From an uncultured Candidatus Saccharibacteria bacterium (GTDB lineage Bacteria; Patescibacteriota; Minisyncoccia; Phycocordibacterales; UBA9973): DNA of 64,000 bases. The notes below the pieces were generated by a model that made no database searches, was not told the DNA's origin, and saw nothing but the letters and a program-made list of their open reading frames with translations. Positions 17,053 through 41,703 of this stretch are shown one piece after another. Numbering within the stretch: position 1 is the first letter of the stretch; each line of letters starts with the position of its first letter. The stretch covers positions 174 to 64,173 of the forward strand of contig CAZXCN010000004.1 in the NCBI GenBank assembly GCA_964639185.1, read 5' to 3'. A program made the position numbers and the translations under genes.

Positions 17053-17061
17053 AATATAAAT

Positions 17062-17098
17062 TAAAAATTCCCTAGGCCTTGCCTAGGGAATTTTTAAT
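17062..17098. terminator. Bidirectional rho-independent terminator; copy A of the palindromic element ttaaaaattccctagg-N-cctagggaatttttaa
   Basis: 16-bp perfect stem flanked by A/T runs between convergent efp (+) and the M20 peptidase gene (-). Confidence 0.7.
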
Positions 17099-17100
17099 AT

Positions 17101-19774: not shown

Positions 19775-19815
19775 ACACAAAATTCCCTAGGCAAGACCTA
19801 GGGAATTTTGTGTAT
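19775..19815 (-). terminator. rho-independent terminator of the rpsF-ssb-rpsR operon; copy B of the palindromic element acacaaaattccctagg-N-cctagggaattttgtgt
   Basis: 17-bp perfect stem immediately after the rpsR stop. Stem arms nearly identical to the hairpin at 17062..17098. Confidence 0.7.
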
Positions 19816-33107: not shown

Positions 33108-33542
33108 TTATTTTCTATTATCATATTCAATCAAAAACTCAATAGCTTTATCTAATACATCCTTGCGTGTTTCCTGACTAAACATAAATGTTTCTACAGC
33201 TTCGTTGTATGTTACCCATTTATACTCGTCAATCTCTTCCTTTTGTATAACTACTGTTTTATTTTTCGCAATACCAATAAAATATTGATTAGTCTTTAAT
33301 ACTCCATTTTTTATAAAATATTCTTCACGAATTAATGGAGTATCTAGAATTTCAATGTCTTCTATTTGTGTTTCCTCTTGTAATTCACGCATAGCGGTTT
33401 GTAGTGGTGTTTCCCCCTCTTCACAATGACCTTTTGGGAAACTCCAATTTACACCATAATCAATCTCTTTATGTCGTAAAATTAAAAATTTATTTTCATC
33501 TCCTAGTAAAACTACAACTACTCCGTATGCATTTTCTTTCAT
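33108..33542 (-). CDS. NUDIX hydrolase
   Basis: Nudix box 'GHCEEGETPLQTAMRELQEETQI'. Start overlaps the ileS stop by 4 nt. Confidence 0.75.
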   Translation of the reverse strand: MKENAYGVVVVLLGDENKFLILRHKEIDYGVNWSFPKGHCEEGETPLQTAMRELQEETQIEDIEILDTPLIREEYFIKNGVLKTNQYFIGIAKNKTVVIQKEEIDEYKWVTYNEAVETFMFSQETRKDVLDKAIEFLIEYDNRK

Positions 33543-36500
33543 TTGGATATCTGAATTCTAATTTCTAATGTATCTACAACTACAGTTTCGCCATCATTAT
33601 CGGCAAAGTTTACAACACCAGCACCTACTGTCTTCTTGAATTCATTCATAAATTCTTCTACTAAATGTTGCGCATTTATAGATATGGTCACAGTCACCAC
33701 ATCAGCTGGTACAAGTCCCATGTTCTTCCTACCATCTTGGACAGCACGAACAAGCTCGCGATAGTCACCCTCGCGCTTTAGATCAGGAGTTATCTCTGTA
33801 TCCAAACCTAGCTCAGCACCGACGACTACATCTTTTACGTTCAATTCATCTTTCAATATTTCTTTGTATTCAGAAGTAATATTTGATTTTGTAACAATTA
33901 TTTTTGAAAGTGGCTGACGAACTTTGATACCAGCTTTCTGCCTCATCTGCAAACCTACTGTTACAATGTTGCGTACTTCTTGCATCTCCTCCAATACAAC
34001 CTTATCAGCTTCACCATCCACCTCAGGCCAGTCTGCTAGGTGCACACTCTCCACATCATTATTCAGCTTCAACCTCTGCCAGATATCCTCGGCTATAAAT
34101 GGTGTAAATGGCGCTATAAGCGTAACTGTGTTTTTTAGTACATAATACAGAGTAGACAGAGCTTCTGTGTCACCATCCTTCAACCTGTCACGTGATCGGC
34201 GTAGGTACCATGTAGACAAATCTTCAATAAACAATTCAAACGGTCGTGTAGATAGAACCATATCATAAGCCTCCATACCATCGGTAACTTCCACCACCAA
34301 TTCAGCAAGGCGTGACAATATCCATTTATCTAAAACATTTTCACTTACCACATTTTTATTATTCTCCAATTCTTTATTGCGATACAACTCATAAAATGTT
34401 GTAACATTTTCCAACCTGCCTACTATCTTGCTAGATATCTCTTGCACAGTCTTCTCGGTAAATGCTACATCCTCCCCCTTCATTACAGGGCAAGACATAA
34501 GGTAGAATCGCAATGCATCTACACCGTATTTATCAAAAAGTATTTGTGGGTCAGGGTAATTATTTTTTGACTTACTCATCTTGCTACCATCTTCAGCAAG
34601 TATAGTTCCTGTTGTTACAACATTTCGGAATGGTGCATGACCAAACAAAGTGCTTGATATTATATGTGTGTAGTAGAACCATGTACGAGTCTGGGCAATA
34701 TATTCAGCCACGAACCCTGCTGGGAAGTTCTCCTTCTCCCAATTTGGTCTTTCAAATGGATAATGATCTTGAGCAAAAGGCATCGAACCAGATTCGAACC
34801 AACAGTCGATAACTTCAGGAACACGAGTATACTCAGTACCCTCGTGGTCCACCAACTTTATCGCGTCGATATATGGCCTGTGTAGATCAAGCTCGTAGTG
34901 TGCATTGTGTGGTAGTGGAACAAAATCAAGGTCGATCAATGTACATGGGTTATGTGGATTATCTCTATATATATTGAATGATGTTACTTCATCGGCAGCC
35001 AGTGCCACTGCTGGCAAAACCTCAAGTCCTATACCATGTGTAACGATCAATATATTTTCGTTCTGATATTTACTTTCCAATTCGTAGATAAAATCTCCAA
35101 ACCTATTCTTTGCATTTTGATGACTCTCACCACCTTCGGGTGCCGCATGGTAGTAACTTGATTGATCATAAGCCCAATCATTGCGTACCTGCCAAGTCTG
35201 ACCATCATAAACACCTGGATTCAATTCTATAAGTCTTTCATCGTGATCGATACTGTCTTTTGCTACACCAATACTATCAACTATTATCTCAGCTGTTTGA
35301 TTTGTACGTGCGAATCGTGATGCAAAAACTTTTGTAATATTTGCATGTTTTAATTTATCGGCTACTTCTTTTGCCTGATCAATACCCTTGTCTGTAAGCG
35401 AGTCGCCTGCCTCATCCTTGTAACTAATCCTATTTTCCACATTATGTTGTGCCTCACCATGACGCACTACAAAGTACCTGTTACCACTCCTCTTTACCTT
35501 GCTCTTCAGATCATCGAGCGAATTTACTATCATCAATTTACCACTCTCGGATTTCCAGAATGGCAAGGGGCTAGCCCAGAAGCGATTGCGAGATATTGTC
35601 CAATCCGGCGCACCCTCCATGATATGCTTGAACCTACCCTCTTTCAAATGAGATGGGACCCAATTCATAACCTCGGCATTCTTCAATGCCTCGGCTTTTA
35701 CCTTCTGCACATTTATAAACCATGAAGGTAGTGCGTAGTATAGAAGTGGTGTATCACAGCGATAGCAGTGTGGGTATGAGTGCACGATCTTTTCCTTTGC
35801 AAATAATGAACCTTTGTGTGCCAAATACTTTATCACCAATACATCGGTTGATTGTGGATCCTCCTTTGGCTTGGCTTTTACATCAGGAAAATCTACTACT
35901 TCTTTAGTAAAGAATCCGTTTGGTTCAACATGACGAATAAAAGGAATATTATTCTCTTTTGCAAGATTCATATCATCCTCACCAAAAGCTGGAGCCTCGT
36001 GTGCAATACCTGTACCTGCATCATCGGTTACAAAGTCGGCATGCCATACACGCCAAATATTTTCTTTGTTTGGCATATCAACATCTTTATAATAATCAAA
36101 CACCGGTTCGTATTGCATACCTACCAATTCACTCCCCTTCACTTCCTTCAATATTTCAGGTTCTACAAATTTATCTTTCAACTTTTCAAAAAGATTCTTT
36201 GCCACTATAAGGTGGTCGTGTCCGCCACCAGCATTAGTAGTCTTCACATAAACATAATCAATATCTTTATTTACAGCTATCGCAGTGTTGCCCGGCAAAG
36301 TCCAAGGGGTTGTAGTCCAAGCAAGTAAATATGTATGTGAAGCAGAATCAGGAAAATTCTCGTCGTGTCGGAGCCCCCGGAGAGAGGGTAAAGCGACAGA
36401 ATTTTCCTGATTCTGCGAAACACGAAATTTCACATAAACAGAAATATCAGTTATGTCTTTATAACTATTATCCATAGCAATTTCTGAATTGGCTATTGGA

Positions 36501-37051
36501 GTCTCGCAACGTGGGCAGTATGCCAATACGCGCACACCCTCGTAAAGTAACTCTTTGTCATTCATCTGCCCCAGTGCCCACCATACACTCTCGATAAAGC
36601 TATTGTCCATAGTCTTATACGAGTTATCGAAGTCTACCCAGCGACCCATACGGTCCACTGTCTTCTTCCATTCACCTACATATTTCAACACAGCACTACG
36701 TGCATGCTCGGCGAATTTATCTACACCGAATTCCTCGATAGCTTTACGCCCTGATATACCTAGCTCTTTCTCGACAATATTCTCAATAGGTAGACCGTGG
36801 CAATCCCAACCCCAGCGCCTCGGTACATGGAACCCTCGCATGGTTTTATATCTTCCAATCACATCTTTTGCTGTCGATCCTAATATATGCCCATAATGTG
36901 GTAAACCTGTAGCAAATGGTGGCCCATCGTAGAAAACGTAAGTTCCCTTTGGAGCCTCCTTTGTTAGTGACTTATTGAAAGTGTCATTCTCTTTCCAGAA
37001 TCCTAAAACACTCTCTTCCCTTTTTGAATTATTACTTTTTTCGTTTTCCAT
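33539..37051 (-). CDS. ileS: Isoleucyl-tRNA synthetase (type 2) with an inserted histidine-phosphatase-superfamily domain
   Basis: 'PPFATGLPHYGHIL' (HIGH), 'WTISRNRFWASPLPFW', 'DLHRPYID', 'KMSKSKNN' (KMSKS). An approximately 190-aa segment (residues about 523-715) carrying 'VVRHGEAQHN', 'SRFARTNQTAE', 'PEGGES' and 'IVTHGIG' sits between the WxISRxR and DLHRP motifs. Confidence 0.9.
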   Translation of the reverse strand: MENEKSNNSKREESVLGFWKENDTFNKSLTKEAPKGTYVFYDGPPFATGLPHYGHILGSTAKDVIGRYKTMRGFHVPRRWGWDCHGLPIENIVEKELGISGRKAIEEFGVDKFAEHARSAVLKYVGEWKKTVDRMGRWVDFDNSYKTMDNSFIESVWWALGQMNDKELLYEGVRVLAYCPRCETPIANSEIAMDNSYKDITDISVYVKFRVSQNQENSVALPSLRGLRHDENFPDSASHTYLLAWTTTPWTLPGNTAIAVNKDIDYVYVKTTNAGGGHDHLIVAKNLFEKLKDKFVEPEILKEVKGSELVGMQYEPVFDYYKDVDMPNKENIWRVWHADFVTDDAGTGIAHEAPAFGEDDMNLAKENNIPFIRHVEPNGFFTKEVVDFPDVKAKPKEDPQSTDVLVIKYLAHKGSLFAKEKIVHSYPHCYRCDTPLLYYALPSWFINVQKVKAEALKNAEVMNWVPSHLKEGRFKHIMEGAPDWTISRNRFWASPLPFWKSESGKLMIVNSLDDLKSKVKRSGNRYFVVRHGEAQHNVENRISYKDEAGDSLTDKGIDQAKEVADKLKHANITKVFASRFARTNQTAEIIVDSIGVAKDSIDHDERLIELNPGVYDGQTWQVRNDWAYDQSSYYHAAPEGGESHQNAKNRFGDFIYELESKYQNENILIVTHGIGLEVLPAVALAADEVTSFNIYRDNPHNPCTLIDLDFVPLPHNAHYELDLHRPYIDAIKLVDHEGTEYTRVPEVIDCWFESGSMPFAQDHYPFERPNWEKENFPAGFVAEYIAQTRTWFYYTHIISSTLFGHAPFRNVVTTGTILAEDGSKMSKSKNNYPDPQILFDKYGVDALRFYLMSCPVMKGEDVAFTEKTVQEISSKIVGRLENVTTFYELYRNKELENNKNVVSENVLDKWILSRLAELVVEVTDGMEAYDMVLSTRPFELFIEDLSTWYLRRSRDRLKDGDTEALSTLYYVLKNTVTLIAPFTPFIAEDIWQRLKLNNDVESVHLADWPEVDGEADKVVLEEMQEVRNIVTVGLQMRQKAGIKVRQPLSKIIVTKSNITSEYKEILKDELNVKDVVVGAELGLDTEITPDLKREGDYRELVRAVQDGRKNMGLVPADVVTVTISINAQHLVEEFMNEFKKTVGAGVVNFADNDGETVVVDTLEIRIQISK

Positions 37052-37270
37052 AATATTTTGAAATTAAAAATAAAAAAACTCGTCCACGTACAACAATATA
37101 AATTGTTATACAAGGACGAGCTTCTCGCGGTACCACCTTGTTTCCCTTTCGGGCTCTCATTTTTGTGGGTTCTACGGTCTTACGACTTTCTTCCCAAAGC
37201 CTGCCTGCCGGCAGGCAGGCTCTAGAGGTGATAGCCTCTAATGACTTATACCCAAATCATACTCTAAAAC
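37052..37270 (-). promoter_or_regulatory. T-box riboswitch-like leader of ileS
   Basis: Minus strand reads '...AGAGCCCGAAAGGGAAACAAGGUGGUACCGCGAGAAGCUCGUCC-N28-GGACGAGUUUUUUU'. T-box core GGUGGUACCGCG plus an intrinsic terminator. The upstream hairpin UAGAGG-CUAUCA-CCUCUA puts AUC (Ile) followed by A in its loop. Confidence 0.55.
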
Positions 37271-37283
37271 CCAAATTTTGCAA

Positions 37284-37312
37284 GAAAAAAGGCTTGCCAC
37301 ACGGACAAGCCT
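37284..37312 (-). terminator. rho-independent terminator of the DUF62-like gene
   Basis: Stem ggcttg-ccacacggac-caagcc preceded on the plus strand by a7 (a T-run on the minus strand). Confidence 0.65.
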
Positions 37313-39990: not shown

Positions 39991-41703
39991 TTACATTTTA
40001 TTTGGGGTTTGGATACCTAGGAGGTATAAGGCGTTTTGCATTGTTGTGTGGAATGCGGAAACAAGGGCTAGGTGGTAAGCTTTGTATTCATTTTCATCAT
40101 TTAGTATATGAGTATTACCGTAGAAACTATTAAAGCTACTTGCAAGCTCGGTAGCATATGTGGCTATATGGTGTGGTTCAAGTTCTGTATACGCGCGGAC
40201 AACCACTTCAGGGAATTGGTACAACATCTTTTCCAAAACTGTTACTTCTGCTGGGGAGTTGTGTGTATCGAAATTGTTTAAGCCAGCTTTTCCAAGTATC
40301 GCATTTGCACGCACCGCTGTGTATTGTAAATACGGACCAGAATCCCCTTCGAAAGATATAGACTTTTCAGAATCATAAATAATATCTGATCCCAGCGATG
40401 AACGTAGTATGGAATATTTTAGTGCGGACACACCTACTACTTCTGCAATATTCTTCTTTTCCTCATCACTCAGTTCCCTCTCAGTCATCTTCTCATAAAC
40501 AGTATCAATAGAGTCGTGTAATAGTGACTCACCAGTAATAATATTACCCTTGCGTGAACTCATCTTGCCACTTGTTAGGCGCATCATGCCGTGAGTAATA
40601 TGCTTCATGCGTGCCTCGTACTCCGGATGGATAAGTGATATAGCTTTTGCTACTACTTTCATATACTCGCCTTGTTCAATGGCAGTCACTACTATAGATA
40701 GGTCTAGGTCCTGTTCCTTTTCAAACTTTGTTATAGTTAGGCCTATTTCCTTTGTCTCGTACAATGGGATGCCTAGTGATGTAATAAATACACGAGTGTG
40801 TAACTTTGGATCATAATTCTCTGCTTTGAAAACTATTGCTCCGTCAGACTCTTCGAAAACATTTGGAATATTGTCCCTCACTATCTTCTCACCAATTGGG
40901 GCCATGACGCTTTCGAAAAAGTAGTGAACAAATTTTGTCCCAAGGATTTTATAAATTTCTTCAAAAGCTTCCAGTGTTACCTCGCGGCCCCAGTCATATA
41001 TTTTGTTTACTTCAACATCACTCCTATCATAAACTTTTTTATTTAGAGCTTCGATTTCCTTCTTTGCATTTTCATCATTATCATAAGCATCGCTACCTTG
41101 TGCATAACAATCCCCTATGTATTGGGCTAGAACTGAAGCAGATGCAGATTCATTTGCTGGAGAGCCAGCCTTGTACATACCATATATTGCTTTTGCTACA
41201 TGCATTCCTACGTCACCTTGATAATTTGCGCGTACAGTTGTAGCCCCTGAGAATTCGACAATGCGTGCCACCGACTCACCTATAGCATTGGTCATGAGGT
41301 GTCCGATATGAAATGGCTTGAAAGGGTTTGGGTCAGTATACTCTACCATTATCTTTTTACCTTTTGATATTTCACTCTTACCCCACTCGCTACCTTTATT
41401 TAATATCTCACCAATTGCATTAGTAAAAAATTCACGAGATAGATAAAAATTAATGAACCCTGCACCAGCTACTTGAATTTCACGTACATGAAATTCACCC
41501 TGATCTTGTCGAAGAATTTCAACAATTTTTTCTGCCAATTCTCTCGGGTTCATCCCTGCCTGCTTTGCATATGCCATAGCCACATTCGTTGAATAATCAC
41601 CATTATTCAAATCAGCTGGGTGTTCAAGTACAATAGCCCCTGCCTGTATACCCAGGTTCTGCAAGGCTTTATTTATACTAGCTTTGATCTCGTCTTGTAT
41701 CAT
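39991..41703 (-). CDS. argS: Arginyl-tRNA synthetase
   Basis: 'PNPFKPFHIGHLMTNAIGESVARI' (HIGH region) and the C-terminal DALR anticodon-binding domain. Confidence 0.9.
   Translation of the reverse strand: MIQDEIKASINKALQNLGIQAGAIVLEHPADLNNGDYSTNVAMAYAKQAGMNPRELAEKIVEILRQDQGEFHVREIQVAGAGFINFYLSREFFTNAIGEILNKGSEWGKSEISKGKKIMVEYTDPNPFKPFHIGHLMTNAIGESVARIVEFSGATTVRANYQGDVGMHVAKAIYGMYKAGSPANESASASVLAQYIGDCYAQGSDAYDNDENAKKEIEALNKKVYDRSDVEVNKIYDWGREVTLEAFEEIYKILGTKFVHYFFESVMAPIGEKIVRDNIPNVFEESDGAIVFKAENYDPKLHTRVFITSLGIPLYETKEIGLTITKFEKEQDLDLSIVVTAIEQGEYMKVVAKAISLIHPEYEARMKHITHGMMRLTSGKMSSRKGNIITGESLLHDSIDTVYEKMTERELSDEEKKNIAEVVGVSALKYSILRSSLGSDIIYDSEKSISFEGDSGPYLQYTAVRANAILGKAGLNNFDTHNSPAEVTVLEKMLYQFPEVVVRAYTELEPHHIATYATELASSFNSFYGNTHILNDENEYKAYHLALVSAFHTTMQNALYLLGIQTPNKM

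Follow-up and report, generated by a model that had tools for sequence, protein, structure and literature searches.

A minimal, terminator-coupled T-box riboswitch candidate upstream of ileS in a bacterium of the Candidate Phyla Radiation

T-box riboswitches that act on transcription generally need a long Stem I with a platform of interdigitated T-loops, by which tRNA is captured quickly, before RNA polymerase (RNAP) reaches the terminator (PMC7583486). T-boxes with an intermediate or ultrashort Stem I are translational and come mostly from Actinobacteria (PMC7583486), to which the TBDB search for T-boxes with a short Stem I was limited (PMC7778990). The origins of T-boxes have been placed in Firmicutes, Actinobacteria, Chloroflexi and Deinococcus-Thermus (PMC7778990; 10.1101/2020.06.17.157016). 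For the Candidate Phyla Radiation (CPR), regulation is described as virtually unknown in the one paper on these bacteria that we found to mention riboswitches, and that paper proposes synthetic ones as tools (PMC11665869). Our full-text search found no report of a T-box in the CPR, Patescibacteria or Parcubacteria, which is not proof of novelty. Here, we describe the leader of the isoleucyl-tRNA synthetase gene ileS in a 64-kb stretch of contig CAZXCN010000004.1, hereafter the window. Sequence comparison and folding indicate that this leader is very probably an isoleucine-specific T-box riboswitch, which would control ileS via transcription attenuation. Its closest described counterparts precede the same gene in Mycobacterium tuberculosis, M. 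smegmatis and Nocardia farcinica ("class II", PDB 6UFG/6UFM per PMC7583486).

The open reading frame (ORF) at 33539..37051 (-) was identified as ileS by a profile match (1170 amino acids; TIGR00392, 863 bits) and begins with the ATG at 37051 (-). The Ile T-box leader occupies 37247..37072 (-), immediately 5' of ileS, and the gene 5' of this leader has its own terminator, ending near 37290. The following parts were recognized:

37283..37278 and 37261..37256 (-): promoter-like site, TTGCAA, 16-nucleotide (nt) spacer, TATGAT, 9 of 12 consensus positions; putative function
37247..37244 (-): 5' strand AAGU of the basal helix (C-stem), pairing with GCUU at 37200..37197 and spanning Stem I and the inserted hairpin
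37241..37222 (-): ultrashort Stem I, UUAGAGG/CCUCUAG, 7 bp with a 6-nt terminal loop CUAUCA, present in the minimum free energy (MFE) structure of the truncated leader
37232..37230 (-): specifier AUC (Ile), then the purine A at 37229
37220..37199 (-): GC-rich hairpin GCCUGCCUGCCGGCAGGCAGGC, placed after the 3' strand of Stem I and before that of the basal helix, giving a three-way junction
37195..37167 (-): Stem II with S-turn, GGGAAGAA-AGUCGUAAGACC-GUAGAACCC, with a GGG/CCC base and a distal GUC-GUAA-GAC hairpin
37166..37155 (-): purine-rich linker ACAAAAAUGAGA, with RAG (GAG) 5' of Stem III
37153..37144 (-): Stem III, CCC-GAAA-GGG, 3 bp with a GNRA loop, from folding
37139..37112 (-): T-box discriminator (antiterminator region), from Rfam match, folding and covariation
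37139..37126 (-): T-box sequence AAGGUGGUACCGCG, from consensus match
37120..37072 (-): intrinsic terminator, CUCGUCC 37120..37114 with GGACGAG 37085..37079, 11-bp upper stem, U7 at 37078..37072, from folding

The predicted transcript start lies at about 37250, a few nt 5' of the basal helix. All motifs quoted from the leader in the preliminary description were found in place on the minus strand, among them UAGAGG-CUAUCA-CCUCUA (37240..37223) and AGAGCCCGAAAGGGAAACAAGGUGGUACCGCGAGAAGCUCGUCC, which contains GGUGGUACCGCG at 37137..37126. Its count of 27 nt to the AUG holds from the end of the hairpin (GGACGAG); from the last U of U7 the distance is 20 nt, all A/U-rich. Beyond that description, we recognized Stem II between the GC-rich hairpin and Stem III, with the S-turn strands AAGAA (37192..37188) and GUAGAA (37175..37170), and the GC-rich hairpin as an insertion. 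In the register common with relatives, this hairpin has 7 bp (37220..37214 with 37209..37203), after which come AG and the GCUU of the basal helix.

The block that had been taken for the T-box core was borne out in two ways. A local scan with the Rfam model RF00230 matched 37109..37251 (-) over the full length of the model (positions 1-219; E=8.1e-6), and AAGGUGGUACCGCG agrees with the T-box consensus AGGGUGGNACCGCG (consensus per PMC11297988) at 13 of 14 positions, the 7-nt bulge between the two antiterminator helices being present as well. The antiterminator consists of helix A1 (AAGG/CCUU), the bulge UGGUACC and helix A2 (GCGAG/CUCGU). The covariance-model check proposed earlier thus succeeded in position and extent, with a score (33.8 bits) that remained below the gathering value of 93. 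Moreover, the dodecamer GGTGGNACCGCG occurs once in the 64 kb even when one mismatch is allowed, for an expectation of 0.11. By every sequence and structure criterion testable here, apart from those that concern lost parts, the element is a T-box.

Folding gave two mutually exclusive structures. When the leader was cut at 37109, before the 3' arm of the terminator, the unconstrained fold contained Stem I, the GC-rich hairpin, Stem II, Stem III and the bulged antiterminator; with the full-length leader, RNAfold formed the terminator in place of the antiterminator. The stretch CUCGUCC serves the antiterminator as its 3' strand and the terminator as its 5' arm, so that the alternative pairing suggested in the preliminary description was recovered. 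Over the same 76-nt stretch, the energies were -5.5 kcal/mol for the antiterminator and -32.2 kcal/mol for the terminator form. A 224-nt stretch folded with z=-7.6 relative to shuffled sequences. The MFE structure of the whole region (37052..37275) was set aside, as in it the leader pairs with sequence 5' of the predicted start of transcription. A simple terminator scan misses this terminator owing to an internal mismatch in its long stem, and RNAfold recovers it.

The N-terminal 518 amino acids of IleS were compared with a species-level genome collection, which gave 80 loci at 52-92% identity. All 80 lie in metagenome-assembled genomes (MAGs) labelled Nomurabacteria, Paceibacteria/Paceibacterota, Parcubacteria, Patescibacteria or "uncultured Saccharibacteria", and because of these labels we place the host genome within the CPR/Patescibacteria, as one of the Paceibacteria/Nomurabacteria type. 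The GC content of the window is about 36%. The remark that a T-box in an AT-rich reduced genome would be noteworthy has to be amended as to the genome type, the host being of the CPR/Patescibacteria and not of the Mollicute type. The pattern GGTGGTACC[G/A]CG was found 70-250 nt 5' of ileS in 41 of the 80 orthologous loci, and the block GGUGGUACC[G/A]CG is kept together with the AUC hairpin in 41 of these 80 ileS loci of related CPR genomes. These 41 leaders and that of the window form the set of 42 to which the counts below refer. A custom covariance model, R1 (seed of 26 leaders, 124 positions, 20 pairs), found exactly one copy per locus in the 41 loci and the window, always directly 5' of ileS, with 16 loci outside the seed matched at E values from 1e-19 to 7e-5. 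R1 had no further match elsewhere in the 64-kb window, where argS (39991..41703), for example, carries no such leader. With RF00230, eight relatives scored 34-68 bits (E down to 9e-13), all under the gathering score.

In the 42-sequence alignment, standard pairs fill 96.6% of the cells at the 20 modelled pairs, and compensatory changes are seen at 13 of them. None of 500 column shuffles reached the observed percentage paired, number of compensatory pairs or covariation score, and sliding the partners by 1-3 columns as a control left 37-56% paired. Thus, the covariation that had been proposed as a check is present in the orthologous leaders. Compensatory changes affect all four modelled pairs of the Stem I helix, the pairs at the base of Stem II covary, and those of A1 and A2 are kept at 98-99%, also with compensatory changes. 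Between the window and its closest relative, L001, there is a compensatory change in Stem II (GUC/GAC vs GCC/GGC). For the basal helix, the covariance-model alignment misplaces the 3' strand in leaders with an extra hairpin, and the counts were therefore anchored on Stem II: 4 of 4 positions are paired in the window and 153 of 168 cells over the whole set, with the covarying types AAGC/GCUU, AGAU/GUCU, AUGC/GCAU, GUAC/GUAC and AUAC/GUAU.

The unpaired positions are conserved as well. The triplet ATC is invariant in all 42 leaders and always followed by a purine (A in 39, G in 3), while the loop bases 5' of it vary, which identifies AUC, and not an overlapping triplet, as the specifier. As the downstream gene is ileS, the earlier reading of AUC and the following A in the loop of the first hairpin was corroborated. 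The bulge UGGUACC is identical in the entire set. In the 26-leader alignment, G..A.GAA and UA.A of the Stem II S-turn are invariant, and Rfam aligns the same GAA/AGUA motif in relatives. The linker motif AAAUGAG(A)AG is also conserved across leaders. A site of the form TTGCAA-16/17-TAnnnT stands 0-6 nt 5' of the T-box element in 29 leaders; being adjacent to the element, this promoter-like site leaves no space for a long Stem I.

Other parts of the family are optional. Most relatives have a kink-turn (K-turn) consensus GC-GUU-GA...GGA-GC (UGAAG...GGA), whose G.A/A.G pairs are Watson-Crick pairs in the window and L001. A Stem IIA/B pseudoknot (CGGGUAAGCCCGUUAUAGCUG) with its F-box (CCGUUA/CCGUCA) is found at the linker position in 14 of 42 leaders; its IIB pairs covary when read by eye (AGC/GCU, AAC/GUU, AGA/UCU), and Rfam aligns it, along with the other elements of the decoding half, in L011 and L047. 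The remaining 28, i.e. the window and 27 of the 41 relatives, are without it. As read from linker lengths and sequences, Stem III is present in about 20 leaders and missing in about 22, and both Stem III and the pseudoknot are missing in 16. Up to the end of the antiterminator, the element measures 112-140 nt, the shortest (112 nt) being that of L033.

An extra hairpin follows Stem I at the same position in 10 of the 42 leaders, and in these ten the 3' strand of the basal helix falls after it. The sequences of the nine relatives' hairpins are unrelated to that of the window. The GC-rich hairpin is a lineage-specific insertion and no core T-box element. The possibility that it is a dispersed repeat or mobile mini-element was rejected, since it is unique in the window and the equivalent hairpins of relatives differ in sequence. 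We also rejected its assignment to Stem II, as suggested by the Rfam alignment, because the conserved S-turn helix sits 3' of it. From the predicted fold, we infer that the three-way junction takes over the role of the K-turn, and perhaps that of the pseudoknot as a "hub", in keeping Stem II beside Stem I.

The likeness to the ultrashort Stem I of actinobacterial ileS T-boxes, pointed out in the preliminary description, is apt for the decoding part. Both have AUC-purine in the terminal loop of a short Stem I and no elbow platform; both have Stem II with an S-turn and a purine string, RAG purines, Stem III and the T-box bulge UGGN, and 14 of the 42 CPR leaders keep the actinobacterial pseudoknot with its F-box. 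The structural roles of the S-turn, the RAG purines and the T-box bulge are described (PMC7583486, PMC11297988). The spacing is also similar to the N. farcinica numbering (C18, A19, A39; PMC7583486), the specifier being about 15 nt away from the 5' end of the element and the S-turn purines following it by about 20 nt. The likeness does not extend to the expression platform, which in the CPR is a hairpin and U-run terminator without a Shine-Dalgarno (SD) sequestrator, nor to the pseudoknot, which the window and most relatives lack, nor to Stem III, which is optional in the CPR family. In the window and L001, moreover, the K-turn is replaced by the three-way junction with the extra hairpin. Finally, the host belongs to the CPR/Patescibacteria and not to Actinobacteria, and the CPR elements are shorter (112-140 nt when counted up to the antiterminator's end vs 166 nt for the M. 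tuberculosis construct; PMC11297988).

With the canonical transcriptional T-box (RF00230; Bacillus subtilis tyrS), the window leader shares the T-box sequence, the 7-nt bulge, the competition between antiterminator and terminator, the S-turn in Stem II as well as a specifier that fits the aminoacyl-tRNA synthetase gene downstream. It differs from the canonical form by the loss of about 70 nt of Stem I (internal specifier loop, AG bulge and distal loop) and of the IIA/B pseudoknot. The distal platform (AG bulge, distal loop with interdigitated T-loops), which had not been seen at first, is indeed absent from the window leader, where a 7-bp hairpin stands instead and 10 nt align vs 80 in RF00230. 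Nor does the base of its Stem I hold a K-turn (GA motif), as UUAG.../...CUAG form Watson-Crick pairs and the inserted hairpin makes a three-way junction, nor does its linker ACAAAAAUGAGA hold a IIA/B pseudoknot with F-box. The minimal transcriptional T-box studied so far, glyQS, is similarly reduced and also lacks the IIA/B pseudoknot, but the reduction is of the opposite kind: glyQS has the long Stem I platform and no Stem II, whereas the window has Stem II and no platform. The codons differ too, being GC-rich GGC in glyQS and AUC in the window (PMC7583486). Taken from the sequences, the CPR family is unusual in that an ultrashort Stem I is joined to a terminator, mostly without the pseudoknot.

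Regarding the expression platform, each of the 42 leaders has a terminator helix followed by a run of at least 4 U (recognized by script in 41 and by eye in L047, which has a GACGAG variant). The base helix of the terminator shows compensatory changes at 3 positions. There is also a three-way covariation, ACC[R]CG - CG[Y]CC - GG[R]CG, in which Y tracks both the antiterminator R and the terminator R, so that both alternative structures are under selection. In the 29 leaders examined for this purpose, U-run and start codon are separated by 2 to 267 nt of AT-rich sequence; an SD-like motif was found in 4 of them, and in 3 of these 4 it is the terminator arm itself. No SD was found between the hairpin and the ATG in the window, where there is only A/U. 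In two loci (L002:1644-1901 and the equivalent in L026), an 85-amino-acid SemiSWEET gene (PF03083 MtN3_slv, 37 bits) lies between the T-box terminator and ileS, and it would fall under tRNA-Ile control. The hairpin and U-run type of terminator also marks gene ends in the genome of the window. Regulation is thus most likely transcriptional and not by SD sequestration, because the U-run is always there, the gap is variable, SDs are few, an ORF intervenes in two loci and the genome uses such terminators. The loci without a T-box add to this reading, their ileS being nearly leaderless behind a promoter-like site.

It is improbable that the T-box acts at the level of translation, either exclusively or in addition to termination, as in the actinobacterial ileS T-boxes, with the large hairpin blocking ribosome loading near the start codon. 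This explanation draws on the translational action of those T-boxes with an ultrashort Stem I that have been studied to date (PMC7583486), and on a few relatives (L030, L037, L040, L011) in which the hairpin ends 2-6 nt before the ATG and the GGACG arm could be a weak SD. It would hardly account for a run of at least 4 U after the hairpin in every leader, for a gap of 2-267 nt that is mostly SD-less in the leaders examined, for a whole ORF between hairpin and ileS in two loci, or for the window itself, where hairpin and U-run end 27 and 20 nt before the ATG with only A/U between. Many, and reportedly not all, ultrashort Stem I T-boxes are translational. A translational component may exist where the hairpin abuts the ATG.

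For control by transcription attenuation, we propose the following course of events. Transcription would start at about 37250, and the nascent RNA would fold into a minimal decoding module, in which the terminal loop of the 7-bp Stem I exposes AUC-A and the basal helix and three-way junction keep this stem beside Stem II. The anticodon GAU of tRNA-Ile would pair with AUC. If the tRNA is uncharged, its 3' ACCA could pair with UGGU of the bulge and stabilize the weak antiterminator (-5.5 kcal/mol), so that RNAP would read into ileS. If the tRNA is charged or absent, CUCGUCC would pair with GGACGAG, forming a hairpin of -32 kcal/mol followed by U7, and transcription would end at about 37072. The motifs, both folds, their conservation and covariation and the link to ileS are read directly from the sequences; from them we infer tRNA binding, sensing of its charge and termination. 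Bacterial tRNA-Ile normally has the discriminator base A73, which fits UGGU.

Several observations weigh against this interpretation. The RF00230 score of 33.8 bits is far under the gathering score of 93, and the whole-window scan at gathering thresholds gave no match to RF00230 nor to any other Rfam family; the low score is explained by the roughly 70 nt of Stem I that are missing. The terminator surpasses the antiterminator in stability by about 27 kcal/mol. The elbow-docking platform of Stem I, described as essential for transcriptional T-boxes (PMC7583486), is absent. So is the IIA/B pseudoknot, the deletion of which reduced tRNA binding about 1200-fold in N. farcinica ileS, a plain hairpin restoring about 200-fold of that (PMC7583486), and the G.A pairs of the K-turn are likewise lacking in the window copy. 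No tRNA gene was found in the 64-kb window, and no tRNA-Ile gene on which anticodon and discriminator base could be checked in the window or the 116 scanned loci. Finally, 38 of the 80 related ileS loci are without any T-box (one truncated at the 5' end of the gene). In such loci (e.g., L004, L006, L013, L019, L024), ileS often comes directly after argS and begins a few nt 3' of a promoter-like TTGC.A...TA...T. This suggests near-leaderless ileS mRNAs and a riboswitch repeatedly lost or gained within the clade.

Such losses might also point to a decayed T-box that no longer senses tRNA and serves as a constitutive or otherwise regulated attenuator, since the platform, the pseudoknot and the K-turn, all held important for tRNA binding (PMC7583486), are missing and half of the related species have no element at all. 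We consider this still less probable than the translational explanation. AUC, the purine after it, the nucleotides of the S-turn and the bulge of 7 nt are all invariant, even though the N-terminal identity of IleS to the window is only 58-92%, and the helices are maintained by compensatory changes, including those between the window and L001; a relic would not preserve an unpaired specifier and bulge. A chance resemblance, in which an ordinary leader with hairpins and a terminator contains an accidental T-box-like dodecamer, is compatible with the sub-gathering score and the empty gathering-level scan, but it is refuted by the full-length match (E=8e-6), the uniqueness of the dodecamer (0.11 expected) and the R1 matches in 41 orthologous loci with covariation, and has next to no probability.

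The scan of metagenomes for the core from Stem II to the T-box gave 80 loci, of which 37 had a full-length match to R1, most of them being AUC leaders 5' of ileS. Leaders of the same ultrashort layout, with hairpin and U-run, were also found with other specifiers: GAC 5' of aspS (L094, L152, L084), AAC 5' of an AspRS-like gene (L133) and of an asnA-like gene (L153), and GUC 5' of valS (L158, L109, L132). These Asp, Asn and Val leaders show that the variant is restricted neither to ileS nor to this clade. The non-Ile ultrashort T-boxes comprise L094, L149, L152, L084/L116, L133, L153, L158/L134, L109, L132 and L095, and the specifier fits the gene where it is readable. Some of their contigs have a GC content of 0.56-0.58, and thus not all of these T-boxes are from CPR bacteria.

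What appears new from these sequences is a minimal, terminator-coupled T-box with an ultrashort Stem I in the CPR; its decoding module is of the known actinobacterial type. We hypothesize further, with about even confidence, that the CPR leaders constitute a natural class of minimal transcriptional T-boxes, sensing tRNA by the ultrashort Stem I and the Stem II S-turn, without elbow contact and often without pseudoknot, Stem III or K-turn. The class would then include the smallest switches in nature that sense tRNA (about 112 nt, counted up to the antiterminator's end) and would extend to leaders of uncultivated bacteria in which the specifier is for Asp, Asn or Val; the origins of T-boxes would include the CPR. 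If true, such a class would contradict the current view that the elbow platform is needed for fast co-transcriptional capture of tRNA. The combination of an ultrashort module and a conserved terminator in dozens of species means that a natural RNA of about 180 nt can serve to test this kinetic argument directly. The presence of an actinobacterial-type decoding module in the CPR also fits a deep Terrabacteria origin of T-boxes, and a tRNA sensor of 112-140 nt would be an attractive minimal scaffold for engineering. Standard annotation overlooks the CPR copies, as their scores are below the Rfam gathering threshold.

Some further features of these loci were noted. Residues 527-688 of IleS constitute an inserted histidine-phosphatase domain (PF00300 His_Phos_1, 106.8 bits, RHGE motif) that splits PF00133; it lies inside the class I catalytic domain, with the WxISRxR motif on one side and D.WF.SG/KMSKS on the other. 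Most of the 80 related IleS genes, whether or not they have a T-box, encode an RHG[EQ] motif at the corresponding position and a protein of about 1150-1190 amino acids.

In L010, L012, L014 and L073, a common repeat of about 100 nt (caaattatattctgaaaaaagtcctcggatctcct...ccagac...aaaataatttg) stands between the T-box terminator and ileS and, from its sequence, resembles a miniature mobile element. Short GC-rich hairpin-like inserts (TTCGACTACGCTCACCGCGAGCG; CCGCC...N...ACGGCGAG) were seen in the A2 loop of L002, L003 and L044, at the tip of Stem II in L003, L005, L036 and L074 and, with the reading frame kept, close to the ileS 5' end in L041, L061, L064 and L079. Also, two intergenic hairpins resembling bidirectional terminators, AAAAUUCCCUAGGC(AAGA/CUUG)CCUAGGGAAUUUU, occur in the window at 17060..17100 and 19775..19815, and their common cap UAGGCAAGACCUA tops Stem II in the related T-boxes L009, L018, L035, L039 and L058 as well.

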